This document shows, in pieces, positions 10,488 through 34,367 of a stretch of DNA of 64,000 bases. A program made the position numbers and the translations under genes. A model generated the notes under the pieces. That model ran no database searches, was not told where the DNA came from, and saw nothing but the letters and a program-made list of their open reading frames with translations. The stretch comes from Nitrospirota bacterium. GTDB lineage: Bacteria; Nitrospirota; Thermodesulfovibrionia; UBA6902. The stretch covers positions 11,970 through 75,969 of the forward strand of contig JACRHB010000220.1 in the NCBI GenBank assembly GCA_016217725.1, written 5' to 3'. The first letter of the stretch is position 1, and each line of letters begins with the position of its first letter.

Positions 10488-10499
10488 AAGTTGTTTTTT

Positions 10500-10555
10500 G
10501 TAGCGTCGGGGTTAATCCCCGACGATGAACGCCCCCGATAAACGAGGGCGCTACG
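10500..10555. repeat. GTAGCG...CGCTAC twin-hairpin element between tyrA and hisC
   Basis: gtagcgtcggggttaatccccgacgatgaacgcccccgataaacgagggcgctac. Confidence 0.55.
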
Positions 10556-11648: not shown

Positions 11649-11651
11649 GAG

Positions 11652-11710
11652 GAAGTTGTTAGTTGTTAGTTGTTAGTCCAAAAACTAAAAACTAACAACT
11701 AACAACTTTT
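11652..11710. repeat. (GTTGTTAG)n/(CTAACAAC)n palindrome between pheA and hisC (same family as 3162-3213)
   Basis: gaagttgttagttgttagttgttagtccaaaaactaaaaactaacaactaacaactttt. Confidence 0.65.
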
Positions 11711-11713
11711 TGT

Positions 11714-13047: not shown

Positions 13048-13126
13048 GAGTTAAGAGTTAAGAGTTAAGAGTTAAGAGTTGAGAGTTAACGGGCTCTAAA
13101 ACTTTTAACTTTTAACTTTCAACTTC
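13048..13126. repeat. (GAGTTA)n ... (AACTTTTA)n imperfect palindromic word-repeat; overlaps the stop of the Mo-oxidoreductase gene
   Basis: gagttaagagttaagagttaagagttaagagttgagagttaacgggctctaaaacttttaacttttaactttcaacttc. Confidence 0.6.
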
Positions 13127-18750: not shown

Positions 18751-18805
18751 AATGGTTTAATTTTTTAAATTAAAAAAATAAATTCTAAAACAAAGGAGCT
18801 ACACC

Positions 18806-19816: not shown

Positions 19817-19925
19817 GAACGCATTAAAAAATACCTTGCTGTATAATAAAGGCTGTTTTCTTCTTCAGGTTTCCTGGAAGAAAGCAGCCTTTTAATTTCA
19901 TGAAATTAATAAGCCGGCAATTAAT

Positions 19926-20004
19926 CCGTCATTCCCGCTTGTCGGGAATCGAACGACTTATCACGCTGAAAGTAAAGAAAGATTCCGGACAAGCCGGAAT
20001 GACA
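19926..20004. mobile_element. MITE-like GTCATTCCCG element, copy 2
   Basis: ccgtcattcccgcttgtcgggaatcg...gattccggacaagccggaatgacag. Confidence 0.55.
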
Positions 20005-20039
20005 GAATTCAAATATTTGCATGCCGGGTTAATAATAAT

Positions 20040-20654
20040 ATGAGGAATAAAAATAAATTTTTATTCCTCATATTATCATGCTCCCTTCTGGCGGTGTTAT
20101 CCTTCTACGTTATCGAAAACAGGCATACCCTCCTGGCAATTTTTTATCAGACTTTAAAGCTGCAGGACAAGGCGGTTGAGGAATTTACAAAAGCCGTAGA
20201 ATCAAGTCAAAGCAACGCATATGCATATTACCAGTTAGGCTTGATATACAAAGACCGGAATGATTTTGACAAGGCTGAGGACATATATTTAAAATTATTA
20301 AAGCTCTTTCCGGGTCATCCTTACGCCAACTATGATTTAGGTTTTGTATACAGAGAAAAACGCATGTACGATAAAGCGATGGAGCAGTATAAAAAGGCTC
20401 TGGGAATTAATCCGAAGAACGTTTTTGCCCTTTCCGATATAGCTTATATCTACAAGGAAAGCGGCCGATATGAAGAGGCGTTGTCGCAATACAGGAAGGT
20501 CCTCGAAATAGACCCGTCCCAGCGTTATGCCTTGTGGGACCTCGGCGTGGTTTATGAGAAGATGGGGATGAAAGACAAGGCTGAAGCGCAGCTCAAATAC
20601 TACCATGAAATGACGGACTGCAGTCTCAGGAGATTCTGGAATTGCCTTGACTGA
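20040..20654 (+). CDS. tetratricopeptide repeat (TPR) protein
   Basis: 204 aa; N-terminal signal/TM, then 5 TPR units (AYYQLGLIYKDRNDFDKAEDIY..., ANYDLGFVYREKRMYDKAMEQY...). Confidence 0.8.
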   Translation: MRNKNKFLFLILSCSLLAVLSFYVIENRHTLLAIFYQTLKLQDKAVEEFTKAVESSQSNAYAYYQLGLIYKDRNDFDKAEDIYLKLLKLFPGHPYANYDLGFVYREKRMYDKAMEQYKKALGINPKNVFALSDIAYIYKESGRYEEALSQYRKVLEIDPSQRYALWDLGVVYEKMGMKDKAEAQLKYYHEMTDCSLRRFWNCLD

Positions 20655-20725
20655 TGAACAATGAGCAACGAAGAAAAAGACACGTTCATTGTTCATCGTT
20701 CACCGTTCATTGTTGATTGTTGATT
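20650..20725. repeat. TGTTCATTG word-repeat hairpin overlapping the TPR stop codon and the GT-C start
   Basis: ctgatgaacaatgagcaacgaagaaaaagacacgttcattgttcatcgttcaccgttcattgttgattgttg. Confidence 0.55.
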
Positions 20726-22719
20726 TGAATATAGCGGCTTACATAATAATAAACCTGCTCTTATTTTCTTCCTGGCACGTCATCCTTTTCAGGCACAGAG
20801 AGACCTTATCGTTCGCCGACAGGATAATAGGCGTTTTTGTCTTAGGGCTGGCGCAGATAATAGCTACCGAGCTGCTGTTAGGCGTAGTGTTTAAAAGGCT
20901 TTTTGCGGCGCCGCTTTTTGGGGTGAACGCGGCAATCTCTTCTGCCGTCCTGATTTATTCCGCTGCCGCTTTCAAGACACAAAAAACCCGGGCCAGCGTC
21001 CTAACCGAGGTCGCCGACAACGTCGTCCGGTTTTTTAATATCTTAAAGACCAATCCGATATTGCTCTCTATTTTTATAATTTTTTCCATTTCGATCTGCT
21101 GGATAATTTTCTTGGGATATTTATTCCCTTCATACACGTGGGATGCCCTGTGGTATCATCTCCCCATAGTCGGCTATATAATGCAGAGCGGCGCCATCCG
21201 CGAGATACCGAACGATTTTATCATCTCTCAGTTTATAAACATCTTTCCAAAAAACATCGAGCTTTTTTTCGTCTGGAACATTATTTTCTTAAAAAGCGAA
21301 GTCCTGGCGGATCTGAGCCAACTCGCTTTTACGATTATCGGCCTCTTCACAATATACAGCATGTCGCTCAAATTGCAGCTCAAAGAGAAAAACGCCGTAT
21401 TCGCCGCGCTTCTATTCTTCTTTGCGCCGATAATAATTCTCCAGTCCACGACGAATTACGTTGACATCACCGTGTCCGTGCTGTTCCTTATCGCGGTGAA
21501 TTTTCTTATTAAGAACAACCCCGGAAATATAAAGGACCGTGCGCATGAACCCGGAGGGGGTATCCCCGTTGTTTTATCAGGACTGGCGGCGGGAATCTTA
21601 CTCGGGTCCAAAGGCTCCGGCCCTTTATTTATCATCGTATTGTCGGCCGCAATTGTAATTCAAGAAACAATTAAGTGTCTTTCCGAACGGAAGACCCCGG
21701 CCGTGCAAAAAAGGCGCGGCTTCGGAGCGAGCTCAAGGCTCCTTCTAATTTACTTTGCAACTCCGGTCCTTATCATGGGAGGTTACTGGTATTTTAAAAA
21801 TTGGGCGCTTTATAACAACCCTGTCTATCCGATGGAGGTTTCCATATTCAATATTACGCTCTTCAAAGGACTATACAAAGAGTTCCTTGAACCGGCTCCC
21901 GCGGTATTCAAAGATCTCTCGCCGCTGAAAAAACTTTTGTACGTCTGGATGGAAAGAGACGAATATTATTTCTACGATTCAAGGCGGAGCGGGTTCGGCC
22001 CTTTATGGTTTATTCTTTTCTTGCCCGCCCTCATATTTTCGCTGATACACGCCGCAATAAAGAAAAGGTACGGCTTCCTTGCCGTAAGCGCAATCCTTGT
22101 CTGCGCGTTTTTGTTATATCCGAGGAATTGGAACACGAGGTACGTTATATTCCTCTTCGGATTAGGCGCGCTGGCATATGGATATATACTTGACTATTCC
22201 AATGACAAAGGGAAGGCATTGGAAGTCATCGCCGTGCTGCTAGCAGGATATACCGCTCTTGCATCCAATTCACCGTGCGTAACGCCGTCGCAAATAAAAA
22301 AATTCCTAAGGCTGCCCGCAGGCGAACGGACCATAGCAAGGCACGCCCCGTTCAGCATTGATCTGCACGCGAGGCAGGAATACGGACACTGGATATGGAT
22401 AAGCAATAATATTTCAAAAGGAGACACCCTGGCCTATACCTTTGAGCCGCTGTTCCTCGCCCCTTTGTGGAATAGTGCATTTTCCAATAAGGTGGCTTAT
22501 ATTAAATCCGACAGTTATAATAACTGGTTAAAAAAGCTTGATGAAAATAACGCGGGATACGCCTTAATAAGACGGAATTCCGAAGAGGACAAGTGGATTG
22601 ACAGGGAGAGGGAGATATTCTCTTCCGCCGGATGGCTGGGCGGCTTGAAAGAGAGGTTCAAGATCGTATATTCCGATGAAAATTATAAGATAGCAAGATA
22701 TGAAAAGAATGAAGATTAA
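20689..22719 (+). CDS. GT-C fold membrane glycosyltransferase (ArnT/PMT-like, family 39/83-like); start uncertain
   Basis: 676 aa; ~11 predicted TM helices in the N-terminal two-thirds and a soluble C-terminal domain; followed by a DPM1-like GT2. Confidence 0.6.
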   Translation: MFIVHRSLLIVDLNIAAYIIINLLLFSSWHVILFRHRETLSFADRIIGVFVLGLAQIIATELLLGVVFKRLFAAPLFGVNAAISSAVLIYSAAAFKTQKTRASVLTEVADNVVRFFNILKTNPILLSIFIIFSISICWIIFLGYLFPSYTWDALWYHLPIVGYIMQSGAIREIPNDFIISQFINIFPKNIELFFVWNIIFLKSEVLADLSQLAFTIIGLFTIYSMSLKLQLKEKNAVFAALLFFFAPIIILQSTTNYVDITVSVLFLIAVNFLIKNNPGNIKDRAHEPGGGIPVVLSGLAAGILLGSKGSGPLFIIVLSAAIVIQETIKCLSERKTPAVQKRRGFGASSRLLLIYFATPVLIMGGYWYFKNWALYNNPVYPMEVSIFNITLFKGLYKEFLEPAPAVFKDLSPLKKLLYVWMERDEYYFYDSRRSGFGPLWFILFLPALIFSLIHAAIKKRYGFLAVSAILVCAFLLYPRNWNTRYVIFLFGLGALAYGYILDYSNDKGKALEVIAVLLAGYTALASNSPCVTPSQIKKFLRLPAGERTIARHAPFSIDLHARQEYGHWIWISNNISKGDTLAYTFEPLFLAPLWNSAFSNKVAYIKSDSYNNWLKKLDENNAGYALIRRNSEEDKWIDREREIFSSAGWLGGLKERFKIVYSDENYKIARYEKNED

Positions 22720-22847
22720 GGGCCGCGAAAACACTTTGCAGATATTGTTCATGCTTATCATCCTTGTATTAGCTGTCGTGTATTTTACGTTGCCTGAAAG
22801 AACGCTGTTTATCGAGAATCAGATGAAGTGGTGGGGAGAGTTTTGGG

Positions 22848-23558
22848 ATGTATTCGGAAAGTAAGAAGGTTACTGTAATAATACCGGCGTTGAATGAGGA
22901 GGAGTCTCTGCCCCTTGTTCTTAGAGACATCCCAAGAGACCTAGTTGGCGAAATCGTTGTTGTCGACAACGGCAGCACGGACAATACCTTCTCTGTCGCA
23001 AGGGACCACGGAGCAACGGTCTTAAAAGAGGATAAAAGAGGATACGGCTCCGCGTGCTGGAGAGGAATAGAATATATTAAAGAGCAGCCCCGGCGCCCGG
23101 AGATAATAGTCTTCCTTGACGCCGACTACAGCGATTATCCCGAAGAAATATCCCTGCTTGTAAAACCTATTCTGGAGGAAGGCTATGACATGGTGTTGGG
23201 TTCGAGGATCACGGGACGACGGGAGAAAGGCTCCATGACTCCGCAATCTTTTTACGGCAACAAGCTCGGAACTTTCCTCATGAAGCTGTTCTTCGGATTC
23301 CCTTATACGGACCTCGGCCCTTTCCGGGCGATTAAATACGATAAGCTTATGGACCTGAATATGCAGGACAGGACCTACGGCTGGACCGTAGAGATGCAGA
23401 TCAAGGCTGCAAAAAAGAAATATAAGATCAAAGAAGCTCCCGTCAACTACCGGGTAAGGATAGGCAAATCAAAAGTCTCCGGCACCGTAAAAGGCACATT
23501 GATGGCAAGCTATAAAATTTTATTGACCATATTCAAATACCTGTTTTCCCCGCCGTAA
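22848..23558 (+). CDS. polyprenyl-phosphate glycosyltransferase (GT2, DPM1/ArnC/GtrB-like)
   Basis: 236 aa; VTVIIPALNEEESLPLVLRDIP...VVVDNGSTDNT and DAD motifs typical of Dol-P/Und-P sugar transferases. Confidence 0.85.
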   Translation: MYSESKKVTVIIPALNEEESLPLVLRDIPRDLVGEIVVVDNGSTDNTFSVARDHGATVLKEDKRGYGSACWRGIEYIKEQPRRPEIIVFLDADYSDYPEEISLLVKPILEEGYDMVLGSRITGRREKGSMTPQSFYGNKLGTFLMKLFFGFPYTDLGPFRAIKYDKLMDLNMQDRTYGWTVEMQIKAAKKKYKIKEAPVNYRVRIGKSKVSGTVKGTLMASYKILLTIFKYLFSPP

Positions 23559-23581
23559 CGCTTCCCCGACGGCCTATCAGC

Positions 23582-23959
23582 TCATTCATATTCCCTCAAA
23601 TCCCTCTCGGAAAGTCCGAAATAATGGCCGACTTCATGGATGAGCGTTTTTCGTATCTGCTCGACAAGCTCCTTTTCGTTTGAACAAATGCTTTCAATGT
23701 TTTTCTGAAAGAGCATTATCCTGTCGGGTAATGGATAAGGGACATCAAAAAAACCCCTTTTATGCGGATACGGCACGCCGCTGAAAAGTCCGAGAAGGTG
23801 TTCTTTCTTCGTATTCATACGTCTTAAATCTTCCTTGTCCGGATAATCCTCCACGATAATAGTGATGTTCTCAAAATACGTTTTGTACTCATCCGGCAAT
23901 AATTCCAAAGCGTCCCCGGCAAGTCTTTCAAAACGCTCTCTGCTTACCCTGAAGGCCAT
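23582..23959 (-). CDS. zincin-like metallopeptidase family protein (HExxH)
   Basis: 125 aa; C-terminal HEVGHYFGLSERDL zinc-binding motif characteristic of the small Zincin_1-type proteins. Confidence 0.7.
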   Translation of the reverse strand: MAFRVSRERFERLAGDALELLPDEYKTYFENITIIVEDYPDKEDLRRMNTKKEHLLGLFSGVPYPHKRGFFDVPYPLPDRIMLFQKNIESICSNEKELVEQIRKTLIHEVGHYFGLSERDLREYE

Positions 23960-24041
23960 GAGTTTATTTTACCTTTTATTTCGTTGATTTCTACCATAAA
24001 AATCCTTATCCTTAATGAAACAGTAAATTATGGAAAGATCC

Positions 24042-25115
24042 ATGCCGAAAACAAATGAAGCGACTGATACGGATTTGAAAGTAATAGAGTGGCTTCAGCA
24101 GGTCGACCGGGAACGAGGGTGACGTCTTTGATAAACGCTGATGACATAAAAATCCTTATCAAAGAAGGGGAAGGGCTTACCGTCGAATTCAAAGAGCGTT
24201 TTACGTCGCGCATTGATGAAGATATTGTTGCATTTGCAAACACCAAGGGCGGGATAATTATTCTGGGCGTCAGAGATGACCGGACTGTAAGCGGCGAGAA
24301 ACTGACAAATGATCTTAAAGCCCGCATCAATTCCGTTGCAAGGAACTGTAATCCCCCGGTTCAGGTAAAGATAAAACAATTACAGAACATCATAGCCATA
24401 GAAGCGCCTCAGGGGGAGGAGAAACCGTATAGTTGCAGTTCCGGTTAATGCCGCCGTACTTTTCCTGATGAAGCATTTAAACCGCCGCAGCGAAATAAAA
24501 GGCATAAATCGTAACGACGTCTATGAGATACCTTTTGAGGCCTTGCGCGAGGCAATCGCCAACGCAATAATTCATCGGGACTACAGCGTGCGCGGCACAA
24601 GTCTTATGGTTGAAGTATATGACGACAGAGTTGAGATAATAAATCCGGGCATATTCCCGGGACGTCAAATGAAAGATTTCGGCAAGATTTCCGTTCGGAG
24701 AAACGAACGTATTGCCGACCTCTTTTTCCGTATGGATAAGGTGGAGCGCGCAGGTACGGGAATAAGGCGGATGAAAGAGGCAATGGCGGAGGCCGGCTTG
24801 CCTGTGCCGGACATTAGACAGACGGATTTTTATACAATTATATTTAAACGGCCAATTGAACGGGCCGGGGTAAAGGTCGGAAGAAAGTCGGAGAGAAAGT
24901 TGGGTGAAAAGTTGGGTGAAAAGTTGGGTGAAAATGAAAAAAGAGTTTTAGAAATTATTGTAAAAAATAAGTTCGCAACAATAACTGAGCTTTCCAGGTC
25001 ATTGGGAATAAGCACGACCGCTGTAGAAAATAATCTTGCAAAACTGAAAGCAAAAGAGATCATCAAACGCATAGGCCCTGATAAGGGAGGACATTGGGAG
25101 ATTATCGACTGCTAA
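24042..25115 (+). pseudogene. AlbA_2 (Schlafen-like) plus HATPase_c_4 plus HTH transcriptional-regulator-family gene, disrupted by frameshifts (fragments 24042-24122, 24089-24448, 24468-25115 in three frames)
   Basis: N-terminal AlbA_2 signature (GEGLTVEFKERFTSRIDEDIVAFANTKGGIIILGV), then a RecG-C-terminal-like ATPase domain (NAIIHRDYSVRGTSLMVEVYDDRVEIINPG) and a wHTH; homologues are single ~450-aa ORFs. Also contains a (GGGTGAAAAGTT)x3 tandem repeat at 24895-24936. Confidence 0.6.
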
Positions 25116-25284
25116 ATTTCAAAAACGATTTGATATTGTGTCGAAGGCAAATGAAGCGGCTGATGCGGATTTGGAAGCTGTTGAGAGGCAAAAGAGGGTT
25201 AGCAAGGCTTTCGTCTTTTTCAGAACTTTAAACTTTTATCAATTTTAAAGTAAAATTATCGAAGACAATTTTCAAGAGGAGATT

Positions 25285-26304
25285 ATGGATAACATAACTG
25301 TTAACCTTGATGGCATTCCAACTGAAATCAAACGATTAAAAATTCCCCTTAAGAAACTTATCCTCGATATAGAAAACCCCCGCATACAATATTTTCTTGA
25401 TACTCGCTTGAATGATGATGTAACTCAAGAGAAAATCAAGTTTGCTTTGGCTGAAGGCAATGACCAATACGAAAAGCTGAAAGAGCATATAGAAAGAAAT
25501 GGCGGCATTTACGATCCGATATGGGTTGTGCCCAAAGACGAATATTTTGTTGTCATCGAAGGCAACACAAGAGCTTTCATCTATGAGGAGTTGTCTGAAA
25601 AATATGTTAATGATGAGAAGTGGCATTCTATTGATGTATATCTTTTGCCATATAAGATCAATCGAAACGTTATTAATTTTATTCGATTGGAAAAGCACCT
25701 CTTTGGGCCTACACCGTGGGATGCTTATGAGAAGGCAAGAGAACTTTATCGACTAAATACAGATGAAGATTACTCACTGAAGCGACTCGAGCAACTAACG
25801 AAATTAAAAGCATCTGACATCAGAAATAATATTCAGGCTTTTATGGATATGGAGAAACAATATCTCCCTAAATACAATAAACCGGCTGAAAGACTCAAGT
25901 TCAGTTACTTTGTTGAATTCAGGAAAAATAAAGAACTGAAACGTATGGTCAAAGAGGGAAAAGTTTCACTTATGGATTTTTGTGATTGGGTTGGCGAAGG
26001 GAAGTTCAGACGCGGTGAAGATATACGTAAACTTCCATTAGTGCTTAAAGATGAACAATCAAGGCAAGCGCTTATTGATGATAGTTTTCAGGCAGCTCTT
26101 GATCAGTTGGAACAAAAGAACCCGGCGGCGAAATCAAAGCTTTTTGAGAAGATAGAGGATGTAGTTGAAGGACTTGAAGGTCTTCCTTTTGGCGAATTGG
26201 ACGAAATTAAAAGAGGACAACAACCGGCTAAGGTTGATTCCCTAAAAAGACTGCATTATGTGACAAAAAATCTTTTGGAAGATATAGGCACTCTTACTCA
26301 ATAG
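25285..26304 (+). CDS. ParB/Srx-fold (ParB N-terminal nuclease-like) domain protein, island gene 1
   Basis: ParB box-like LILDIENPRIQYF and arginine-finger-like VVIEGNTRAFIY; paralogous to 28124..29170 (shared ENPRI, V(I/V)EGNTR, WDAYEKA); ~33% GC. Confidence 0.55.
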   Translation: MDNITVNLDGIPTEIKRLKIPLKKLILDIENPRIQYFLDTRLNDDVTQEKIKFALAEGNDQYEKLKEHIERNGGIYDPIWVVPKDEYFVVIEGNTRAFIYEELSEKYVNDEKWHSIDVYLLPYKINRNVINFIRLEKHLFGPTPWDAYEKARELYRLNTDEDYSLKRLEQLTKLKASDIRNNIQAFMDMEKQYLPKYNKPAERLKFSYFVEFRKNKELKRMVKEGKVSLMDFCDWVGEGKFRRGEDIRKLPLVLKDEQSRQALIDDSFQAALDQLEQKNPAAKSKLFEKIEDVVEGLEGLPFGELDEIKRGQQPAKVDSLKRLHYVTKNLLEDIGTLTQ

Positions 26305-26711
26305 TGGCTGGGAACAGACATCAATTTATTCTTGGTTTGGTTGTTAAGAAGATGCGGGAAGAAGGGGCGGAGCTTTACGGCATTGATGGTAACTATCCAG
26401 GGCTCTTCGGCGAAAAAGTGCCATTGCCGCCTCAAATATTAAGACACCGCCCCGATGCGATAGGAATAAAAAGTAATGGGCAATTATGCATAGGGGAAGC
26501 AAAAACAGAGGGGGATATTCTCAATACAAGGACATATGAGCAGTTGCAGGACTTCACCAGTGTTGAAATAAACGGCTCAAAGTGCGAAGTATTTGTTGGC
26601 GCACCGCAATCCAGTGAAAATAATTTTGGAAAAAGTCTGGAGAAAACCGGATTGAAAGGATGTGATAATCTCCATGTACTTTATATTCCAGACGAAATAA
26701 TCAATGATTAA
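26304..26711 (+). CDS. small PD-(D/E)xK nuclease-fold-like protein, island gene 2
   Basis: 135 aa; ...HRPDAIGIKSNGQLCIGEAKTEGD gives the D...(E)xK spacing typical of restriction-endonuclease-like folds; start overlaps the stop of gene 1. Confidence 0.4.
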   Translation: MAGNRHQFILGLVVKKMREEGAELYGIDGNYPGLFGEKVPLPPQILRHRPDAIGIKSNGQLCIGEAKTEGDILNTRTYEQLQDFTSVEINGSKCEVFVGAPQSSENNFGKSLEKTGLKGCDNLHVLYIPDEIIND

Positions 26712-28134
26712 AGAGAAACAGCTTTTTGAACCAAAGACACAAGCCCTTCCACATCAAATAGAAGCTACTAATTATATTAATAATCACCAGGAGGTAGCTT
26801 TATTTGATGAGCAGGGATTGGGAAAAACAAAGATCGTCATTGATTCATTATGCTGTTCAATGAAGCACGGTGAAATTGAAGGGGTGCTTGTGGTATGTCC
26901 CATGTCTCTTATATACAATTGGGAGCAGGAGGTGCATAAACATTCTTTTCTTATTCCGGTTGTGCTTAAGGGCAGTGATAGAGAAAAAAGATATAAATTC
27001 ATGACAGGCGCAAACTTTTATATCACCAATTATGAAGCTGTTGTTGCTGAGACAAACAGAATAAAACGGTTTTGTAAGAGCCGCAAGGTTGCAATTGTGC
27101 TCGACGAATCTGCCCGCATAAAAGACCCTGCTACAAAAACCGCACAAGCGCTATTTGATTTGAGACCATTTTCAACAAAGAGAATAATCATTACCGGAAC
27201 CCCTGTTGCGAATAAGCCGATTGATCTATGGTCACAGTTTTATTTCCTTGATGGCGGGAAACTGTTCAGTGAAGACTTTAATGATTTCAAGGCAGAATTC
27301 AATGAGCGGCATACCTTATACAAGGATAATCTCGCTGAATTAAACACCATTGTTTCAGCCAACTCTCTCCGTCGCTGCAAAGACGATGTACTTGAACTTC
27401 CTGATAAGAGATTCATCAACGTATATGTCCGTCTTAAAGGGAAGCAGCTTGAACTCTACAATCAACTTCGCGAGGAATTAAAAATTGAAGTGCAGGACAT
27501 GGAGGGGAATGTTTTTGTTGATGAGGCCGAAAATATTCTCAAGAAATTACTCAGACTGACACAGATTGCAAGCAATCCTCTTTTAATTGATAAGGGGTAT
27601 GATGAGACTCCTTCCAAATTTATTATGCTTGATGACTTGCTCAACGATATTGCAGCAAGAAAGGAAAAGGCTATAATTTGGACAGGCTTTGTTGAAAATA
27701 TAATTATTTTAAAAAACAGGTTCAAACAATATAAGCCATTAATCATTCATGGTGATATTCCGGTTAAGGAACGGGCAGAAGCGGTCAAGGTCTTTCAGGA
27801 GTCAGAGAACAATATTATAATGATTGCAAATCCTTCTGCTGCACGTGAAGGGCTTACACTTACGAAGGCGAATAATGCGATTTACGTAGACAGAAATTTC
27901 AATCTTGTAGATTATTTGCAATCACAGGATAGAATACATAGAATATCTCAGACAAAAGAGTGTAATATATTCAAAATTCTTGCAAAAGATACAATTGATG
28001 AATATATTGATAGGGTCATTGATGTAAAAAAAGAAATAGCTGGTTATGTTCAAGGCGATTTAAAGAAAGTAAAAGTTGAAAGCCTTAATTTTCTTTTAAA
28101 CAAAACTGAACTCTTATGTATTCTTGGGGGGTAA
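26704..28134 (+). CDS. SNF2-family DEAD/DEAH-box helicase (compact, 476 aa), island gene 3
   Basis: Walker A DEQGLGKT, DExH VLDESARIKD, SNF2 motif TGTPVANKPIDLW, helicase-C motif VI QSQDRIHRISQ; 8-nt overlap with gene 2. Confidence 0.85.
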   Translation: MIKEKQLFEPKTQALPHQIEATNYINNHQEVALFDEQGLGKTKIVIDSLCCSMKHGEIEGVLVVCPMSLIYNWEQEVHKHSFLIPVVLKGSDREKRYKFMTGANFYITNYEAVVAETNRIKRFCKSRKVAIVLDESARIKDPATKTAQALFDLRPFSTKRIIITGTPVANKPIDLWSQFYFLDGGKLFSEDFNDFKAEFNERHTLYKDNLAELNTIVSANSLRRCKDDVLELPDKRFINVYVRLKGKQLELYNQLREELKIEVQDMEGNVFVDEAENILKKLLRLTQIASNPLLIDKGYDETPSKFIMLDDLLNDIAARKEKAIIWTGFVENIIILKNRFKQYKPLIIHGDIPVKERAEAVKVFQESENNIIMIANPSAAREGLTLTKANNAIYVDRNFNLVDYLQSQDRIHRISQTKECNIFKILAKDTIDEYIDRVIDVKKEIAGYVQGDLKKVKVESLNFLLNKTELLCILGG

Positions 28135-29170
28135 TGTGCCTGTAGAAACAATCACCGTATTAGGCAGAGATATAACTTATGAAATAAAAAATGTTGATAT
28201 ACACAACCTTGAATACTATCCGGAAAACCCTCGAATCAACTATATAATCAGCAGATATCCTCGTGGGAAAGTCACGCAGGATTTCATTGAACAAGAACTC
28301 TTAAAGTTAGATTCAACAAAGGAAAGGATAAAAGACCTCGAAGAAAATAAAGGTCTTTTAGATGAAGTCTATGTCGTTGAAAATAAAGTGGTCGAGGGAA
28401 ATACGCGGCTCTGTGCTTACAGAAGGTTGAGTCGAAAATATCCTGATGACACGCGATGGAAACGCATCAAATCCCGTATTCTTAAAGGTAAGATCAAAGA
28501 TGAAGAGCTTTTCTATATACTTGGCACTTTTCATATTAAAGGAAAGACAGAATGGGATGCATATGAAAAGGCCGCATATATACACAAAATGATCAGGATC
28601 CTCAATAAAAATCCTGAAGACATTGCAAAGCAATTAGGGAAACAGAAAAAGTCTATAGAAGCCATGCTAAGGGCATATGACGTTATGTCGAAAAAATACC
28701 TTACATCCTCTAATGAACCATCACTTGTAAACGGTGCGAGAGATGAACTTAAGAAATACAGTTACTTTGAGGCATTTTTTCTCCAAAAAGAACTGGCAAA
28801 AAAATCAGAGGATACTCCTGACTTTATCGATCAGTTTGTTGAATGGGTAAAGGAAGATAGGTTCAAGAAGGCGCAGAATGTTCGAGAGTTGCCAAAGATA
28901 TTAAGTCATAAGAAGGCGACGAAGGCTTTTTATGAAGGGGATGCTGAGGATGCATTTGATGAAGCCAAGCATATTCTTTATGAGCATAAGCCGGAGAAGG
29001 TTGACAGATTCTATAAAAAGGTAAGAGAATTTCGAGAGTTGATCCACGAGGCTGAGGCGTTTAAAATAAGAGATGAAATTGAGAGCAACAAGAATAAGAA
29101 AAATGAGTTAAGAGAGTGTTATAAAGATTTAAAGAGGTTTTGTAAGGAAGTGGGATTGGATGCTCAATAA
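28124..29170 (+). CDS. ParB/Srx-fold domain protein, paralog 2, island gene 4
   Basis: LEYYPENPRINYI and VVEGNTRLCAYRRL motifs; 11-nt overlap with the SNF2 gene. Confidence 0.55.
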   Translation: MGGNVPVETITVLGRDITYEIKNVDIHNLEYYPENPRINYIISRYPRGKVTQDFIEQELLKLDSTKERIKDLEENKGLLDEVYVVENKVVEGNTRLCAYRRLSRKYPDDTRWKRIKSRILKGKIKDEELFYILGTFHIKGKTEWDAYEKAAYIHKMIRILNKNPEDIAKQLGKQKKSIEAMLRAYDVMSKKYLTSSNEPSLVNGARDELKKYSYFEAFFLQKELAKKSEDTPDFIDQFVEWVKEDRFKKAQNVRELPKILSHKKATKAFYEGDAEDAFDEAKHILYEHKPEKVDRFYKKVREFRELIHEAEAFKIRDEIESNKNKKNELRECYKDLKRFCKEVGLDAQ

Positions 29171-30185
29171 GCCAAAGGAGAGGATCATGAAAAGAACATT
29201 TAAGGCGATTGAAATGGTACAAAATAAATGGAAGTTTTATGTGTTTAGTATAAAATCCGACTTGTTATACAAAATAGCTTATATCAGTAGGAGACACGAG
29301 AATAAGGAAGAAGGATATCAGCGAAATCTGTCAAAAAAACGCGCAAGAGAAATATATGATTATATTTTTACCTTACACGGTGTTATCCCCAATAATATTA
29401 TTCTGAACTTTGATACGAATCTAAATTATGATACAAAAAGTCAGACAATTTCCTTTAAAGATGATGAAAATATTGCGTGGATTATTGATGGTCAACATAG
29501 GCTGTATGGCTTGTCTTTAAGCAAAAAACCCATTGATGTTATGGTGGTAGCTTTTGAGAAATTAGATATACAAAATCAAGCAAAAATATTTAGGGTAATT
29601 AACTCCACCCAAAAAGGTGTTAATGCGTCACTTATCTATGATCTTATTGACTTGGTTAAAGATGCGAGTTTTCTTGAGGAACGTGCTCATGAACTTGCAA
29701 AAAAACTCAATAGCGACCCGGAGTCACCATGGTATATGCAAATAAAAATGTTGGGGATAGGGGCTGGCCTGATTTCTCAAAGCGCATTTGTAAATAACTT
29801 AATACTTTTGTTGGATGAAGAAAGACGGGCACCATTGCAGGTATATACAGAAGAAGAGCAATATGGCATATTAAAAAATTATTTCAATGCAGTCAAATAC
29901 TCATTCCCAAATGACTGGGGACAGGCGAATTCCTTACTCACTAAGACAATGGGATTTTACTCATTAATAGCCGTACTGCCAACTGTTTTACAAATGTGCT
30001 CAGGCAACTTTACGACTGATTCGGTAATTAAAATACTTGAACCAATAAAGGATTATAATTTTGCAAGTAGTGGACCATTGAAAGGCGTTTCCGGCAAGGC
30101 TGGGGTTGAGAGAATCACATCTGAAATAAACTCTCTTTTAACAGCAACAAGGAAATCAAAGAAGACGCCGATAATAAAGCTTTAA
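29160..30185 (+). CDS. DGQHR-domain protein (DndB/DpdB-like ParB-superfamily), island gene 5
   Basis: GYQRNLSKKRAREIYDYI ... WIIDGQHRLYGL: the diagnostic DGQHR motif, plus an FxxxN motif (FRVINSTQ); 11-nt overlap with gene 4. Confidence 0.8.
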   Translation: MLNKPKERIMKRTFKAIEMVQNKWKFYVFSIKSDLLYKIAYISRRHENKEEGYQRNLSKKRAREIYDYIFTLHGVIPNNIILNFDTNLNYDTKSQTISFKDDENIAWIIDGQHRLYGLSLSKKPIDVMVVAFEKLDIQNQAKIFRVINSTQKGVNASLIYDLIDLVKDASFLEERAHELAKKLNSDPESPWYMQIKMLGIGAGLISQSAFVNNLILLLDEERRAPLQVYTEEEQYGILKNYFNAVKYSFPNDWGQANSLLTKTMGFYSLIAVLPTVLQMCSGNFTTDSVIKILEPIKDYNFASSGPLKGVSGKAGVERITSEINSLLTATRKSKKTPIIKL

Positions 30186-30187
30186 TC

Positions 30188-31021
30188 ATGTTCCATAAAA
30201 TCGTTGCTAATTTTAGAGAAGTTAGTGGAGTGTGTGAAGGGTTTGTAAAAGATGCTGTCAGAACAAATCCTGCATTACCGTTATCTTTAATTACACATAA
30301 ATTCCAACCGTTTTATTCTAATGAGTTGAAAAATAAATTTTTCAAAGAAGTTAACCTTTATTTAGACAAGGCCATGTATCAATACATAATAAGTCGTTCC
30401 CTGTTGCATGAAGGTATTTTTTCTTGGGGAGCAGTAACACAATATTATGCCAATTTCTTTGCAATTTCTGGATTAATAAGGCTACATGAAAATGGATTTT
30501 CAAGGATAGGCAATTTAGATGTAGAGGTTCAACAGCAATCTGATATATATGAAATTAGAAAAACTAAAACAGAGGGACTACACAGAATTGTTTGGTCTAA
30601 ATTTTATGCCCTATACAAAGGGTTTGATTATAAGCCTCAGATCTTTTATACAGTCTATTCACCAATTAATAATAACAATTATTTTGAATCAGACAGGCGC
30701 AATGACATTAACTACAATCCAGCATCAGGATATCAAGAAATTTATCAAACGTATAGCACGGTGAAGTCTTTAATAAAAGAGCGCACAAAAGATGCCTATT
30801 CTGCGGACAAGATTGAATTAGCAAATGAATGGATTGATTCAGATACAAGAACTCAATACAGAATCAGATTGCTCGCAAATATTATTTCTGAAATAGACGC
30901 ACTTAGTCATTTCCCTACTCACGTCAAGGAACGATTAATAAATAGAGAGAAATTTATTCAACGATATGAAACGGACAAAAGATATCGGGTTCGTTTCTTA
31001 GGCTGGTTAACAGGTGAATAG
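30188..31021 (+). CDS. hypothetical protein (277 aa), island gene 6
   Basis: No recognisable motif; AT-rich codon usage as in the rest of the operon; 3-nt gap from gene 5 and 8-nt overlap with gene 7. Confidence 0.5.
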   Translation: MFHKIVANFREVSGVCEGFVKDAVRTNPALPLSLITHKFQPFYSNELKNKFFKEVNLYLDKAMYQYIISRSLLHEGIFSWGAVTQYYANFFAISGLIRLHENGFSRIGNLDVEVQQQSDIYEIRKTKTEGLHRIVWSKFYALYKGFDYKPQIFYTVYSPINNNNYFESDRRNDINYNPASGYQEIYQTYSTVKSLIKERTKDAYSADKIELANEWIDSDTRTQYRIRLLANIISEIDALSHFPTHVKERLINREKFIQRYETDKRYRVRFLGWLTGE

Positions 31022-32396
31022 AATGAATATACTTCTTGTTGAACCAGGTTACAAAAATAAATATCCACCTCTTGGTCTTATGAAAATATCTGCATTCCAC
31101 AAACAGCGCGGTGATAACGTACGTTTTATAAAGGGACTAAACAAAGAGGTCAAAGCACAAATGTGGGATAGAATTTATATAACCACCCTGTTTAGTTTTT
31201 ATTGGAATGAAACTATTAATACTATCAGATACTATGAATACAGCATACAAGACCCTCAGAATCTTTTTATAGGCGGGCCGATGGCAACGCTTATGTCAGA
31301 CGAAATAGAGAAAGAAACAGGATATAGGCCGGTAAAGGGATTACTGAATGAAAAAAGAAAATTGAGGTTGCCGAATGATTATAAAGTTGACAGCCTGGTT
31401 CCCGACTACAGCATCCTTGAACAAATAGAGTACAAGTATCCGGCATCAAACGCCTATTTTGCTCATGCAACAAGAGGCTGTATAAGAAAATGCCCGTTCT
31501 GCGCTGTTCCCAAAATTGAACCTTTTTATACAGATTATATCCCCTTAAAGAAACAGATAATAATGATTAATGAAAAATATGGAGAAAAGAAAGACCTTCT
31601 ATTGCTGGATAACAATGTCCTTGCATCTTCACAATTTGACAAAATAATTGATGAAATCAAAGAAGCGGGGTTTTATAGGGGAGCTAAATTAAATAACAGG
31701 AACAGATACGTAGACTTTAATCAGGGAATAGATCTGAGACTCCTTACGAAAGAGAAAATGAGGCTGTTGGCTGAACTTTCCATAAAGCCTTTGCGAATTG
31801 CCTTTGACCACATTAAATTGGAGAAGGAATACGTTAAAAGAGTAGAGTGGGCTTCTGAATTCGGAATAAACAATTTATCAAATTATATCCTATATAACTT
31901 TCATGACACTCCAGAAGATTTTTATAGACGGTTAGAAATAAACATTGAACTGAATGAAAGATTAGGGACTAAAATATTTTCATTTCCGATGAAATATATC
32001 CCCATAGATAATAGGGATCGAAAGCATAAAGGCAAGTATTGGAATCTTCGATACTTGAGAGGTATTCAATGTATTTTACAAGCCACACACGGAGTCGTAA
32101 GTCCCCAAAGAGAATTTTTTCATGCAGCATTCGGGAGAAACGTCGAAGCTTTCAAAAAGCTTCTTTTAATGCCTGATAACTATATTATCTTTCGCGAAAA
32201 TCACAAGAATAATGGTACTGCTGATTGGGCTAAGATATACGATTCCTTATCTAATGAGCAACAAAAGGAATTTCACGACATAGTTTTTGAGAATCAATTC
32301 AATAATGGATTGCTGTCGAAATATTCAAAGATAAATATTCTCTTAGCTCACTATAAGGTGCCGAAACAACAAGTTTCTCTAAAAGAGCTTTCTTAG
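31014..32396 (+). CDS. radical SAM enzyme with an N-terminal B12-binding-like (Rossmann) domain, island gene 7
   Basis: Canonical CxxxCxxC (ATRGCIRKCPFCAV); the N-terminus MNILLVEPGYKNKYPPLGLMKISAFHKQRGDNVRFI resembles the N-terminal domain of class-B radical SAM enzymes; ~34% GC. Confidence 0.7.
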   Translation: MNRMNILLVEPGYKNKYPPLGLMKISAFHKQRGDNVRFIKGLNKEVKAQMWDRIYITTLFSFYWNETINTIRYYEYSIQDPQNLFIGGPMATLMSDEIEKETGYRPVKGLLNEKRKLRLPNDYKVDSLVPDYSILEQIEYKYPASNAYFAHATRGCIRKCPFCAVPKIEPFYTDYIPLKKQIIMINEKYGEKKDLLLLDNNVLASSQFDKIIDEIKEAGFYRGAKLNNRNRYVDFNQGIDLRLLTKEKMRLLAELSIKPLRIAFDHIKLEKEYVKRVEWASEFGINNLSNYILYNFHDTPEDFYRRLEINIELNERLGTKIFSFPMKYIPIDNRDRKHKGKYWNLRYLRGIQCILQATHGVVSPQREFFHAAFGRNVEAFKKLLLMPDNYIIFRENHKNNGTADWAKIYDSLSNEQQKEFHDIVFENQFNNGLLSKYSKINILLAHYKVPKQQVSLKELS

Positions 32397-32604
32397 TGTA
32401 GAAAGATTTCCAACCTGACAACTATGGCAAGCCATAACACAGAATACAATCCACCCGGAGAAATAATGCAGGAGGAAAATCTTGACTAGGCAGGTAACCC
32501 CGAACAGATACGCCACCCTTATTGAACGTCTTGCGGACATTATCCATTTCGCATGGACAACCGCGCCCGCTTCTTGATATTTTCGTCGTCAAATAGCATG
32601 ATAT

Positions 32605-33777
32605 ATGACGACGATGGCGACAAAGGCGAAAAATCACGATGATATTTATATCGATAGAATATTGAGCCTGCCGGGGCTGTTGGAGAAAAAATCCTATTTC
32701 CTTTTCGGGCCCCGCCAGACGGGGAAATCGTCCCTTATCCGGCATACCCTGAAGGGCGCAAAGGTCTACGACCTCCTGGACACATCGATATTTCTGGCTC
32801 TGAGTCAAAACCCAGGCCGTCTGTCCCAGGAATTGAGCGCCGGAGACCGGATCGTGGTAATCGATGAAATACAGCGCCTGCCCATTCTGCTCAATGAGGT
32901 TCACCGGCTGATTGAAGAGAGAGGCCTTCGTTTTTTGCTCACCGGCTCGAGTGCCCGGAAGCTCCGCGGCGGCGGCGTGAACCTGCTTGGCGGGAGGGCG
33001 CGTACGAAAAATCTGCATCCTCTCACCTGCCGGGAGCTCGGGCGGCATTTCGACCTGTTCCGTGCAATCGAACGCGGCTTGCTGCCGTCCATATATTTTT
33101 CGGATGATCCACGCGCGGATCTTCGCGCCTATGCAGGCTCTTACCTGCAGCAGGAGATTATTGCCGAAGGGGCCGCCCGCAATGTGCCTGCCTTCAGCCG
33201 TTTCCTGAAGGTTGCCGCATTATGCAACGGCACGATCGTCAATTTTACTAATATAGCCAATGATGCCCAGGTGCCCCGCACGACAGTGTACGAGTATTTC
33301 GAGATCCTCAAAGACACTCTTATCCTCCACGAGCTTCCTGCCTGGCGCCGGTCATTAAGGCGCAAGCCTTTGGCCTCCTCGAAGTACTATTTTTTTGATA
33401 TCGGCATAGTGTCGGAGCTGCAGGGTCGAAGATTCAGGCCCGGCACGCCTGAATTCGGAGAGGCCTTTGAGACATATATTATGCATGAGCTCCGAAGCTA
33501 TATCGATTATATTTCTGCCGAGCCTCTCAGCTACTGGCGGTCGACGTCAGGTTTTGAGGTGGATTTCATCCTGGGCGATCATACGGCCATTGAGGTGAAG
33601 GCAAAAGAGAATGTATCGGTACAGGAGCTTAAATCGCTGCGTGCCCTTAAGGAAGAAAAGATATTGAAGCGCTACCTTTGTGTAAGTCTCGAATCCCGTA
33701 CAAGAACGGTCGACGGAATTATTATTCTGCCATACCGGAAATTTCTCGACGGCTTATGGAGCGGAGAGTATTCATGA
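32605..33777 (+). CDS. AAA-family ATPase (AAA_14 plus DUF4143 architecture)
   Basis: Walker A GPRQTGKS, Walker B VVIDEIQ; C-terminal DUF4143-like region; GC-rich (~60%). Confidence 0.85.
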   Translation: MTTMATKAKNHDDIYIDRILSLPGLLEKKSYFLFGPRQTGKSSLIRHTLKGAKVYDLLDTSIFLALSQNPGRLSQELSAGDRIVVIDEIQRLPILLNEVHRLIEERGLRFLLTGSSARKLRGGGVNLLGGRARTKNLHPLTCRELGRHFDLFRAIERGLLPSIYFSDDPRADLRAYAGSYLQQEIIAEGAARNVPAFSRFLKVAALCNGTIVNFTNIANDAQVPRTTVYEYFEILKDTLILHELPAWRRSLRRKPLASSKYYFFDIGIVSELQGRRFRPGTPEFGEAFETYIMHELRSYIDYISAEPLSYWRSTSGFEVDFILGDHTAIEVKAKENVSVQELKSLRALKEEKILKRYLCVSLESRTRTVDGIIILPYRKFLDGLWSGEYS

Positions 33778-33836: not shown

Positions 33837-34367
33837 ATGGAAATCAAAATCAACAAAAGCACATTGTCACTGGTTGAAGGCGATATTACAAAACAGGACA
33901 CGGACGCAATAGTGAATGCGGCGAATAAAACCCTTCGCGGCGGAGGCGGCGTTGACGGGGCGATCCACAGGGCGGGCGGCCCGAAGATCCTTGAGGAATG
34001 TATAAAGATTGGCGGCTGCGAGACCGGCGAGGCTGTGATAACCACGGGCGGGAATCTCAAGGCCAAATATGTAATCCATACGGTCGGTCCGGTTTACAGG
34101 GACGGCCTGCACAATGAGCCGAAGCTTCTTGAGAACGCTTATAGAAACAGTCTGAAACTTGCTTCGTCGAAGGGTATAAAAAGCATCGCCTTCCCGTCAA
34201 TAAGCACGGGAGCTTACGGTTATCCATTGGAAGATGCAGCGGAGATCGCATTAAAGACCGCGATTAATTATCTCTGGGAGCATCCCGACATAGAACTGGT
34301 CCGTTTTGTCCTTTTCGGACAGAAGACGCTTGAGGTTTATGAGAAGAAACTGAAGCCACTGGTTTAG
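33837..34367 (+). CDS. macro-domain protein (O-acetyl-ADP-ribose deacetylase, YmdB/MacroD-like)
   Basis: 176 aa; DIT..DAIVNAAN..L.GGGGVDGAIHRAAG and ...AFPSISTGAYGYP motifs. Confidence 0.9.
   Translation: MEIKINKSTLSLVEGDITKQDTDAIVNAANKTLRGGGGVDGAIHRAGGPKILEECIKIGGCETGEAVITTGGNLKAKYVIHTVGPVYRDGLHNEPKLLENAYRNSLKLASSKGIKSIAFPSISTGAYGYPLEDAAEIALKTAINYLWEHPDIELVRFVLFGQKTLEVYEKKLKPLV

Follow-up and report, generated by a model that had tools for sequence, protein, structure and literature searches.

Two ParB-like paralogs in a mobile gene cassette with an SNF2 ATPase, a radical SAM enzyme and a small putative nuclease: a candidate DNA-targeting conflict system

The 64,000-nucleotide stretch of Nitrospirota DNA analysed in this study (the window) carries a conserved cassette composed of a ParB-like protein (A), a small putative PD-(D/E)xK nuclease, an SNF2 ATPase, a second ParB-like protein (B) and a radical SAM enzyme that also possesses a B12-binding-like domain. 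A and B are true paralogs along their full length. In what we consider the best joint reading of the data, to which we assign a probability of about 0.55, they descend from an ancient and fixed duplication that gave rise to two non-redundant lineages of one large uncharacterised family in the ParB/Srx superfamily, and the cassette as a whole is an undescribed, restriction-modification-like system of DNA-targeting conflict (defence), with A and B as its DNA-recognition subunits. Neither a published description of this cassette nor an experiment on it was found in the literature, and no defence-database models cover it, PADLOC giving weak partial matches only.

Gene content and order of the cassette

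All cassette genes in the window lie on the + strand. The gene for A (25285..26304, 339 aa, ATG start) is followed by one for a putative restriction-endonuclease-fold protein with the PD-(D/E)xK signature (26304..26711, 135 aa). This second gene begins on the final base of A and runs 8 nt into the SNF2 gene. The SNF2-family ATPase/translocase (26704..28134, 476 aa) consists of motor domains only and precedes the gene for B (28124..29170, 348 aa from a TTG start, or 344 aa from the start placed 4 codons later by NCBI). The radical SAM enzyme (31014..32396, 460 aa) is the remaining core gene. The way in which the genes overlap or abut suggests translational coupling. A sequence-only reading of this DNA had described the two paralogs, the SNF2 gene and a DGQHR protein as an operon. 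All of these are present, with the SNF2 gene between the paralogs, but two core components had been overlooked, namely the radical SAM enzyme and the 135-aa nuclease, whose gene also lies between A and B.

Among 78 loci in genomes of many phyla, 42 showed a fixed gene order, 30 of them with A>REase>SNF2>B>rSAM>GHKL and 12 with A>REase>SNF2>B>rSAM, and so did two inspected Rhizobiales/Roseomonas plasmids. A GHKL ATPase stands at the end of the cassette in at least 30 loci (HATPase_c_3, 2e-11); the copy in the window is without it. Rhizobium pR132505 and Roseomonas p2-AD3 carry a seven-gene form, and inversion of the DGQHR-rSAM-GHKL block in Roseomonas indicates that two modules are involved. 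In R. leguminosarum WSM1325 the cassette corresponds to RLEG_RS34150-34120. The copy upstream of SNF2 was A-type in 63/63 loci, and the downstream copy was B-type in 53/54.

Signature residues of the small nuclease are H6, D28, R49-P50-D51 and E65-A-K67-T68; RPD51 was invariant in 29/29 members of its family, with E65 and K67 conserved in at least 90%. Five of these 29 members were matched by the AHJR-like REase model of Pfam (PF18743, best E 3e-4) and one by HSDR_N; no PDB sequence was matched. An ORF of this family was detected in 57 loci, lying between A and SNF2 in those examined, and an SNF2-family ORF in 59. In the window, the latter displays the Walker A motif GLGKT and the DExx box DESARIKD, and aligns to the Pfam models SNF2-rel_dom (2.7e-40) and Helicase_C (2.5e-14). 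The radical SAM enzyme is class B-like, combining the CxxxCxxC motif (C156, C160, C163) and a partial TIM barrel with an N-terminal Rossmann, B12-binding-like domain; enzymes with the nearest folds have proteins, tRNA or small molecules as substrates.

Upstream of A, a consensus scan tentatively placed a promoter-like site at 25227..25256 on the + strand (TTTAAA-18-TAAAAT), with its -10 element TAAAAT inside GTAAAATTATCG. The element GTAAAATTATCG is common to the window and three other loci (L003, L007 and L009). Since the remaining upstream DNA is unrelated, the left edge of the cassette can be set at ~ 40–60 nt before the A start codon.

Paralogy, motifs and fold of A and B

A and B could be aligned from end to end by BLASTP with 30% identity and 49% positives (E = 1e-35). 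Both follow the same domain plan, in which a ParB/Srx N-domain with the NPR and EGNTR motifs leads into a ParB-type HTH and, at the C-terminus, a helical domain specific to the family. The three motifs by which the pair had originally been recognised occur in the same order in both proteins, as IENPRIQYF, VVIEGNTRA and PWDAYEKAR in A and as PENPRINYI, KVVEGNTRL and EWDAYEKAA in B. Given the strength and the extent of the pairwise alignment, this sharing goes far beyond compositional coincidence. When 24 A-type and 23 B-type homologs were aligned together with the two window proteins, twelve positions proved invariant (N31, P32, R33, E92, G93, N94, R96, W145, A147, Y148, K150 and A151). Across full-length copies from 78 other genomes, NPR, [DE]GN[ST]R and HxxGxxxW were kept in 67–68 of 68 A-type and 52–53 of 53 B-type proteins, and the looser pattern [DE]GN.R was found in 68/68 and 53/53, respectively. 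This degree of conservation implies that the motifs are under selection. The family is large: clustering at 50% identity left 1929 clusters when the limit was E ≤ 1e-3, and 398 when it was E ≤ 1e-30.

Support for the ParB fold, which had been proposed from the motifs, came from a family-wide profile and from a structure model, and not from direct HMM searches, in which neither window protein taken alone gave a match to a ParB N-domain in Pfam or NCBIfam. The top 33 Foldseek matches of the structure model were all ParB, Noc, KorB, PadC or Spo0J. Alignment to pNOB8 ParB-N extended over 188 residues, and to Spo0J over 160. The closest structural relatives possessing both N-domain and HTH were the CTP-switch clamps ParB, Noc and KorB, and not nucleases. 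The family profile matched Noc (2.6e-6) and Helicobacter pylori ParB (1.4e-5) over both the N-domain and the HTH, the order of domains seen in canonical clamps. A and B thus share with the ParB/Srx superfamily, at fold level, its alpha/beta N-terminal domain. Weaker signals were obtained from 43 divergent family members (Pfam ParB_N in four, HTH_ParB in three and ddrB-ParB in two) and from residues 143–187 of B (HTH_ParB, 0.013; parB_part, 0.0044), and for some plasmid members the PGAP annotation reads ‘ParB N-terminal domain-containing protein’.

In the profile alignment EGNTR faces the GERR of Noc and ParB; the glycines coincide, and R96 pairs with the second Arg. The GxxR nucleotide-binding box (box II) is therefore present in the form of [DE]GN[ST]R, in place of the full GERRxRA box of canonical CTP-switch ParB proteins (ParB/Spo0J, Noc, KorB, PadC). 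Box III differs as well: the ENLQRE of Noc faces the family segment H138..G141..W145, so that HxxGxxxW stands where canonical proteins have ENLQR. Box III is required for CTP hydrolysis in canonical ParB, and with this replacement CTPase chemistry of A and B cannot be assumed. The N-domains are predicted to bind nucleotide, and A and B would be nucleotide-gated DNA-binding subunits.

A and B also differ from canonical ParB in their C-terminal domain, in forming two fixed paralogs within an operon with a nuclease, SNF2 and radical SAM enzyme, and in their lack of partition partners. No ParA-type family was matched among the eight island proteins scanned (24468–32396), as the sequence-only reading had stated. 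The parS-like palindrome for which it had proposed a search was not found: 23500–33000 contained no inverted repeat of 12 nt or longer with high complementarity, save for AT-rich, chance-like pairs. The region upstream of A was not conserved among 14 loci and offered no conserved operator. At island scale, neither the palindromic loading site nor the ParA/KorA partner of a canonical clamp was seen. Together with the linkage to nuclease, SNF2 ATPase and radical SAM enzyme, this bears out the earlier view that we are not dealing with a simple partition system.

Accessory genes, distribution and mobility

Between B and the radical SAM gene lies a variable slot, which in the window is filled by a DGQHR-domain protein of the DndB/DpdB-like kind (29160..30185, + strand, 341 aa). 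Its scores (TIGR03187, 181 bits against a cutoff of 58.85; NF041060 DpdB, 119 against 300; TIGR04172, 124.5 against 450) identify it as a DGQHR-domain protein, and as neither DpdB nor the dnd-associated equivalog. The gene is a recurrent but dispensable accessory, found in 11 of about 55 loci keeping most of the cassette, and located immediately upstream of the gene for the radical SAM enzyme on the Rhizobium and Roseomonas plasmids. The claim that three ParB-superfamily domains share one operon holds as far as the presence of the DGQHR protein goes, but overstates their unity, as the A/B family profile has no detectable similarity to the DGQHR family of the cassette (hhalign probability 1.1%). 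Nor did Pfam DndB, GmrSD_N or DUF262 match A or B significantly, and we rejected a placement of A and B among DGQHR/DndB/DpdB proteins. Next to the DGQHR gene, a 277-aa protein of unknown function (30188..31021, + strand), with no match in Pfam, NCBIfam or PADLOC, accompanies this DGQHR subtype; it co-occurs with closely related DGQHR proteins only in L003, L005, L011 and L027, the partner in other loci being a metallo-beta-lactamase-fold protein.

The cassette is present in many bacterial phyla and is horizontally mobile. GC content of the island is 0.35–0.41, against about 0.48 in its flanks, and A is 84–88% identical among Nitrospirota, Brocadia, Thermodesulfobacteriota, Spirochaetota and a Methanosarcinales bin. 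Most loci are chromosomal and at unrelated sites, the genes flanking the cassette differ at every site, and both decay and IS insertions are frequent. Among 103 flanking ORFs, the immediate neighbours belong for the most part to housekeeping functions; only a few methyltransferases, integrases or Abi genes occur, and hence there is no strong defence-island enrichment. No homolog was found in 50,697 phage records, a result that speaks neither for nor against defence and offers no clue from the phage side. In five loci an A remnant and the radical SAM gene were kept after loss of REase-SNF2-B, while REase-SNF2 without a radical SAM gene was never seen on sufficiently long contigs. This asymmetry of loss hints at restriction-modification-like behaviour.

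Proposed role, related systems and alternatives

According to the reading that we favour, A and B would bind DNA, perhaps as an A/B heterodimer, with NTP binding and hydrolysis enabling them to close on it, spread along it or release it. They would then recruit or license the SNF2 motor and the separately encoded nuclease, leading to degradation of target DNA. The radical SAM enzyme may supply a covalent mark, or other chemistry, by which self is told from target, and the DGQHR NTPase, where present, may aid it as DpdB aids DpdA. Of the DNA-clamping or nicking complex suggested earlier, A and B may account for the clamping; nicking more plausibly belongs to the dedicated small nuclease.

There are precedents in known systems. 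DpdB, a ParB-like ATPase with a DGQ[HQ]R motif, is required for DNA modification by DpdA, in a system (DpdA/B/C plus DpdD-K) that also has SNF2-type helicases on its restriction side (PMC10164549). The window SNF2 and DGQHR proteins matched the PADLOC models for DpdE (6e-44) and DpdB (1.8e-35), but against NCBIfam cutoffs DpdB fell short as above and DpdE reached 22.5 against 500; the candidate modifier here is a radical SAM enzyme, and A and B are not of DGQHR type. With no match to DpdA/TGT, DpdC or DUF328 models among the eight island proteins, identity with Dpd was discarded. ParB-DUF262 domains act as DNA sensors or regulators in defence (GmrSD/BrxU, SspE, Menshen NsnA, DndB; PMC12065111) and their plan, a ParB-superfamily NTPase domain with an acid-Gly-amide-x-Arg box joined to a DNA-binding domain, resembles that predicted for A and B; in A and B the DNA-binding domain is a ParB-type HTH, not ParBDB, and the proteins form a paralog pair.

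The best PADLOC match of the window helicase was ZorD of type I Zorya (3e-64), in which an SNF2 motor is fused to an Mrr-like nuclease of the restriction-endonuclease fold. The cassette may contain a split version of this fusion, its nuclease being encoded by the separate 135-aa gene upstream. Only the C-terminal motor half of the ZorD and DpdE models was matched, the ZorD equivalog NF041790 scored 106 bits against a cutoff of 1500, and ZorA, ZorB and ZorC had no match among the eight island proteins, by which Zorya type I was dismissed. The GHKL ATPase that stands in at least 30 loci next to an SNF2 helicase and a nuclease reproduces an association described for prokaryotic GHKL/MORC proteins in predicted restriction-modification systems by Iyer, Abhiman and Aravind (2008; PMC2292703). 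Their paper mentions neither ParB nor radical SAM, and the window cassette has no GHKL gene. PD-lambda-5, a compact restriction-modification plus Abi system (PMC9519451), was set aside, as A matched PADLOC PD-Lambda-5_A (E 4.4e-9) only in its N-domain (profile positions 10–189 of 473) and the cassette yielded no methyltransferase gene. B gave a weak, partial match to PDC-M38A (3e-8).

A more specific form of the favoured reading, which we regard as speculative, is a new class of restriction-modification-type immunity. DNA would receive a covalent mark of a kind not known before, made through radical chemistry by the B12-type radical SAM enzyme; the ancient pair of ParB-like clamps, heterodimeric and gated by nucleotide, would read this mark or distribute it, and would license the split SNF2-nuclease to destroy unmarked DNA. 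If true, these would be the first ParB-type clamp pair and the first radical SAM DNA modifier in self/non-self discrimination.

It is unlikely that A and B only serve, like DpdB or DndB, as accessory NTPases in a pathway that modifies DNA or another substrate, with the cassette being an epigenetic or DNA-repair module without immune function and with SNF2 and nuclease giving the radical SAM enzyme access to DNA. Such a role would fit the DpdB precedent, the acid-Gly-amide-x-Arg pattern common to [DE]GN[ST]R and DGQ[HQ]R, the core status of the radical SAM gene and the mostly housekeeping flanks. Against it stand the lack of any profile relation to the DGQHR family, the association of SNF2 with REase and GHKL ATPase, which are classical restriction-type components, and a set of features typical of conflict systems (patchy horizontal distribution, low GC, frequent decay and IS insertion, and plasmid carriage beside TA systems and an integrase).

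We consider it improbable that A and B cleave or nick DNA themselves, an activity put forward for Osa, RK2 ParB and ‘ParB-like nuclease’ domains, within a multi-nuclease degradation machine where nucleotide only regulates cleavage. The cassette already conserves a dedicated nuclease whose gene overlaps the SNF2 start, the nearest two-domain structural relatives are the CTP-switch clamps, and nuclease activity of ParB domains is weakly documented.

Least probable is that A and B regulate transcription or the nucleoid in the manner of KorB or Noc, or serve the mobile element in partition, and are linked to cargo genes by chance: the two-domain ParB/Noc/KorB architecture, the plasmid location of some copies and about eight loci in long contigs with a solo A-type copy and no other cassette gene called would agree with this, but the paralogs occupy fixed positions around SNF2 in 42 loci, most loci are chromosomal and at unrelated sites, the DNA and the island proteins scanned showed no ParA or KorA-like partner, parS-like palindrome or conserved operator, and separate replication or partition genes lie nearby on the two plasmids inspected (repC on pR132505 and a ParA family gene on p2-AD3).

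Fold and nucleotide pocket of the paired ParB-like proteins

The two ORFs on either side of the SNF2 gene, ParB-A (25285-26304, + strand, 339 aa; NCBI tag HZA14_12810) and ParB-B (28124-29170, + strand, 348 aa with a TTG start and 344 aa in the NCBI call; HZA14_12825), proved to be genuine paralogs, as the sequence-only reading had proposed from the motifs ENPRI(Q/N)Y, V(I/V)EGNTR and WDAYEKA, present in both in identical order. BLASTP aligned the pair colinearly over the full length (E 1e-35, 30% identity), and an alignment of both proteins together with 24 A-type and 23 B-type homologs showed N31, P32, R33, E70, N72, E92, G93, N94, R96, K106, W113, H138, G141, W145, A147, Y148, K150 and A151 to be invariant, so that the likeness is real and not a coincidence of composition. 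NPR, [DE]GN[ST]R and HxxGxxxW were retained in 67-68 of 68 full-length A-type and 52-53 of 53 full-length B-type copies. Because the copy upstream of SNF2 was A-type in 63 of 63 loci and the downstream copy B-type in 53 of 54, the duplication is older than the split of the window's clade from a distant clade, which is composed largely of marine and sponge-associated metagenome bins (identity ~30% for A, ~40% for SNF2 and ~46% for the radical SAM protein).

The ParB fold itself was not recovered by direct searches, an outcome that at face value would have overturned the claim by the refuting test set out in the sequence-only reading. As single queries, neither A nor B gave a ParB N-domain match in Pfam, NCBIfam or PDB sequence searches; the Pfam matches were spurious or weak (TIMELESS_C for A, 0.005; HTH_ParB for B, 0.013), B also displayed a weak parB_part match in NCBIfam, and phmmer searches of PDB with either protein returned nothing relevant. 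A profile of close homologs (A1) likewise had no match in PDB. However, the fold was supported once the wider family was considered. Searched exhaustively with a profile, 1.84 billion representative proteins yielded 1929 clusters (50% identity) at E ≤ 1e-3, with 398 at E ≤ 1e-30, and most of the best 150 members listed were ~330-350 aa long. A second profile (A2), made of 43 divergent members from the 50%-representative search, matched Noc (E 2.6e-6) and H. pylori ParB (1.4e-5) over ~135 residues covering both N-domain and HTH, with 'viEGNtR' of the A/B family aligned to 'iAGERR'. A few family members individually reached Pfam ParB_N, HTH_ParB or ddrB-ParB, and all of the best 33 PDB matches in Foldseek were ParB, Noc, KorB, PadC or Spo0J chains. 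A, and by homology B, is therefore a protein of the canonical two-domain ParB plan, extended by a family-specific helical domain of ~140 aa at the C terminus.

The nucleotide pocket of the family is altered: box II reads [DE]GN[ST]R, and box III carries HxxGxxxW instead of ENLQR. The acid-Gly-amide-x-Arg pattern of box II recalls the DGQ[HQ]R of DndB, DpdB and SspE; DNA sensing in defence is a known role of ParB-superfamily NTPases belonging to the DUF262/DGQHR type. By fold and GxxR motif A and B belong to the ParB/Srx superfamily, but box III, parS and ParA all set them apart from the canonical CTPase ParB family. They also fall outside the cassette's own DGQHR family, which stands for the DndB/DpdB type, and none of the systems Dpd, Zorya and PD-lambda-5 includes them. 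Neither Pfam nor NCBIfam has a model covering A and B of the window, and PADLOC gave only partial matches. The fold assignment is not entirely new, because some plasmid members have already been named 'ParB N-terminal domain-containing protein' by PGAP; what is new is the paired architecture and the cassette, in which a large family combines the canonical ParB N-domain and HTH plan with an altered pocket, as a fixed A/B pair around SNF2 and the candidate nuclease, beside a radical SAM enzyme. Both A and B probably bind DNA and nucleotide.

Gene order and partner genes of the cassette

A total of 78 related loci (numbered with the prefix L below), one genome per species, were fetched and compared by tblastn and ORF clustering. 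Gene order was fixed as ParB-A, a small protein, SNF2, ParB-B and radical SAM, with exactly these five genes in 12 loci and a GHKL ATPase added after the radical SAM gene in 30 more. In the window, successive genes overlap or abut (26304/26304, 26704/26711, 28124/28134, 29160/29170 and 31014/31021). Some loci departed from this arrangement: L031, an Elusimicrobia MAG, carries three tandem ParB-like paralogs (8953-12009) followed by nuclease and SNF2 genes, with GHKL and radical SAM encoded on the other strand; L072 has an additional inverted B-type copy; and in ~8 loci on long contigs an A-type copy stands alone, none of the other cassette genes being called.

The small protein (26304-26711, + strand, 135 aa) had been passed over in the sequence-only reading. 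An ORF of its family was found in 57 loci, between A and SNF2 where examined. H6, D28 and R49-P50-D51 are invariant and E65-A-K67-T68 nearly so, a residue pattern that is a predicted PD-(D/E)xK signature. Five of 29 family members reached the AHJR-like restriction endonuclease model in Pfam, and sequence searches of PDB gave no informative match. Together with the motor-only SNF2 protein, whose best PADLOC match is ZorD (3e-64), it resembles a split version of ZorD.

The radical SAM protein combines a Rossmann, B12-binding-like N-domain with a radical SAM core in which C156, C160 and C163 are invariant; its homologs are named 'cobalamin-binding domain-containing protein' by NCBI, and sequence searches of PDB gave no informative match. 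Its assignment as a methylthiotransferase was rejected, as it is without the conserved N-terminal Cys triad. The GHKL ATPase (HATPase_c_3, 2e-11) is lacking in the window's copy of the cassette. It is a MORC-like protein of ~500 aa with the motifs YREYIQNAxDS, DNGxG and RGxxGIGRL, encoded after the radical SAM gene in the distant clade and on rhizobial plasmids (L032-L078, e.g. L033:15701-17239, and L080:15628-17196).

The ORF at 29160-30185 encodes a bona fide DGQHR-domain protein (TIGR03187, 181 bits) whose scores do not reach the equivalog cutoffs for either DpdB or the dnd-associated family. It had been counted with A and B as a third ParB-superfamily domain, which holds only at the most distant, superfamily level. 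Profile-profile comparison with hhalign detected no relation of the A/B family to the DGQHR protein or its family. DGQHR genes were present in 11 of ~55 loci retaining most of the cassette, were absent from most of the distant clade, and lay between B and the radical SAM gene, in a slot whose content varies. The DGQHR partner was a 277-aa protein in the window (30188-31021, + strand) and in L003, L005, L011 and L027, a metallo-beta-lactamase-fold protein of ~420 or 765 aa in L002, L008, L012 and L015, IS elements in L068 and L069, and other genes or none elsewhere. The 277-aa protein, which had no match in Pfam, NCBIfam or PADLOC, accompanied one DGQHR subtype only. Since the partner varies between loci, DGQHR and its partner look like a nested two-gene module.

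The DGQHR gene lies directly upstream of the radical SAM gene in the Rhizobium leguminosarum WSM1325 plasmid pR132505 and in Roseomonas mucosa p2-AD3. Because the entire DGQHR-radical SAM-GHKL block is inverted relative to A-nuclease-SNF2-B in Roseomonas, the arrangement suggests two modules, one for targeting or restriction (A, nuclease, SNF2 and B) and one for chemistry (radical SAM, optionally joined by DGQHR and GHKL).

Transfer, decay and possible function

The cassette lies in a stretch of low GC content (0.35-0.41 versus ~0.48). DNA 5' of A was unrelated among 14 loci, save for a -10-like GTAAAATTATCG motif, and the transferred unit thus begins just before A. A was 84-88% identical across Nitrospirota, Brocadia, Thermodesulfobacteriota, Spirochaetota and one Methanosarcinales bin, and the family is spread over many phyla and is also found in one archaeal bin and on rhizobial plasmids. 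No match to A was found in a phage collection of 50,697 records, and no tRNA was found. Flanking genes differed at every site and were mostly housekeeping, with a few methyltransferases, integrases, AbiEii or DUF4143 proteins; defence-island enrichment was not demonstrated.

Collectively, A and B are conserved ParB-fold HTH paralogs whose GxxR pockets are intact, and their synteny with a candidate nuclease, SNF2 and a radical SAM protein is fixed; the cassette is horizontally mobile and does not serve partition. We consider this cassette to be a conflict or defence system, with a probability of roughly 0.55-0.6. In Dpd, the ParB-like ATPase DpdB is needed for DpdA to insert preQ0 into DNA, and DpdD-K restrict (PMC10164549); ParB-DUF262 domains are DNA sensors in GmrSD, SspE and Menshen (PMC12065111), and predicted restriction-modification systems contain GHKL/MORC proteins alongside SNF2 helicases and nucleases (PMC2292703). 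A full-text literature search (ParB, radical SAM, SNF2, GHKL, defence; PDC-M38) found no description of this gene combination, the papers on Asgard MGE, Druantia and BREX using ParB in unrelated senses only.

Within a conflict or defence system, the radical SAM enzyme might act on DNA under a logic similar to restriction-modification, a tentative proposal that would imply a novel DNA modification. The best-studied roles of ParB-type CTP switches lie in chromosome and plasmid partition (ParB), in nucleoid occlusion (Noc) and in long-range repression (KorB). It is conceivable, if doubtful, that A and B assemble into a heterodimeric gated clamp, which, if nucleotide-gated, would extend the ParB switch to a new job. 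The combination of both, a DNA mark installed by radical SAM chemistry and read by a pair of ParB-type clamps, is more speculative still and would be of high interest if true.

Decayed copies of the cassette are common. Five loci (L014, L017, L021, L024 and L029) have kept a usually truncated A and the radical SAM gene and have lost nuclease, SNF2 and B, and no nuclease-SNF2 pair without the radical SAM gene was seen among contigs long enough to judge. This asymmetry, based on small numbers, would be expected if protection against the nuclease module came from the radical SAM enzyme. A cassette devoted solely to modification, or to repair, would be a rather unlikely alternative. That A and B are themselves nickases we regard as improbable, in a cassette that encodes a separate candidate nuclease. 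Least of all do we expect A and B to be regulators or partition proteins: the absence of ParA noted from the sequence was borne out by scans of the island proteins, no convincing parS-like palindrome was present in 23500-33000, and the alignment of 14 loci contained no conserved operator upstream of A, only the -10-like motif. Cultured carriers (among them R. leguminosarum WSM1325, Mesorhizobium NZP2077, Roseomonas mucosa AD3 and Geobacter argillaceus) make these hypotheses directly testable.

Surroundings of the cassette in the window

Upstream of A, an AlbA_2-like N-terminal ORF (24089-24448, + strand) and a HATPase_c_4 and winged-HTH ORF (24468-25115, + strand) look like a single Schlafen/AlbA2-type regulator gene split in two; the latter contains three copies of a 12-nt tandem repeat encoding KLGEKLGEKLGE. 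An imperfect 51-nt direct repeat (78% identity; 24043-24093 and 25139-25189) brackets the pair. This regulator gene was rejected as a part of the system, as tblastn with its protein listed no match in the loci shown and DNA upstream of A was unrelated among the 14 loci. A perfect 16-nt direct repeat, CATAAAAATCCTTATC (23995-24010 and 24145-24160, 150 nt apart), is located at the left edge of the low-GC region.

Downstream, a 16+16-nt palindrome (TCGTCGTCAAATAGCA/TGATATATGACGACGA, 88% complementary, 32583-32614) overlaps the start of an AAA_14 and DUF4143 ATPase gene (32605-33777), after which comes a Macro-domain gene (33837-34367). In L054, a homolog of the ATPase (45% identity) is located immediately upstream of the cassette. 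A B12-binding radical SAM protein (35389-36873, - strand) and an 802-aa fusion of PqqD, radical SAM, SPASM and class I methyltransferase (36905-39313, - strand) suggest a peptide-modification (RiPP-like) cluster separate from the cassette. The host flanks (13112-16369, - strand; 17230-23558, + strand) encode a molybdopterin oxidoreductase carrying a 4Fe-4S dicluster domain, glycosyltransferases of family 2, one TPR protein and a 676-aa ORF without Pfam match, and represent ordinary chromosomal context with a GC content of ~0.42-0.50.
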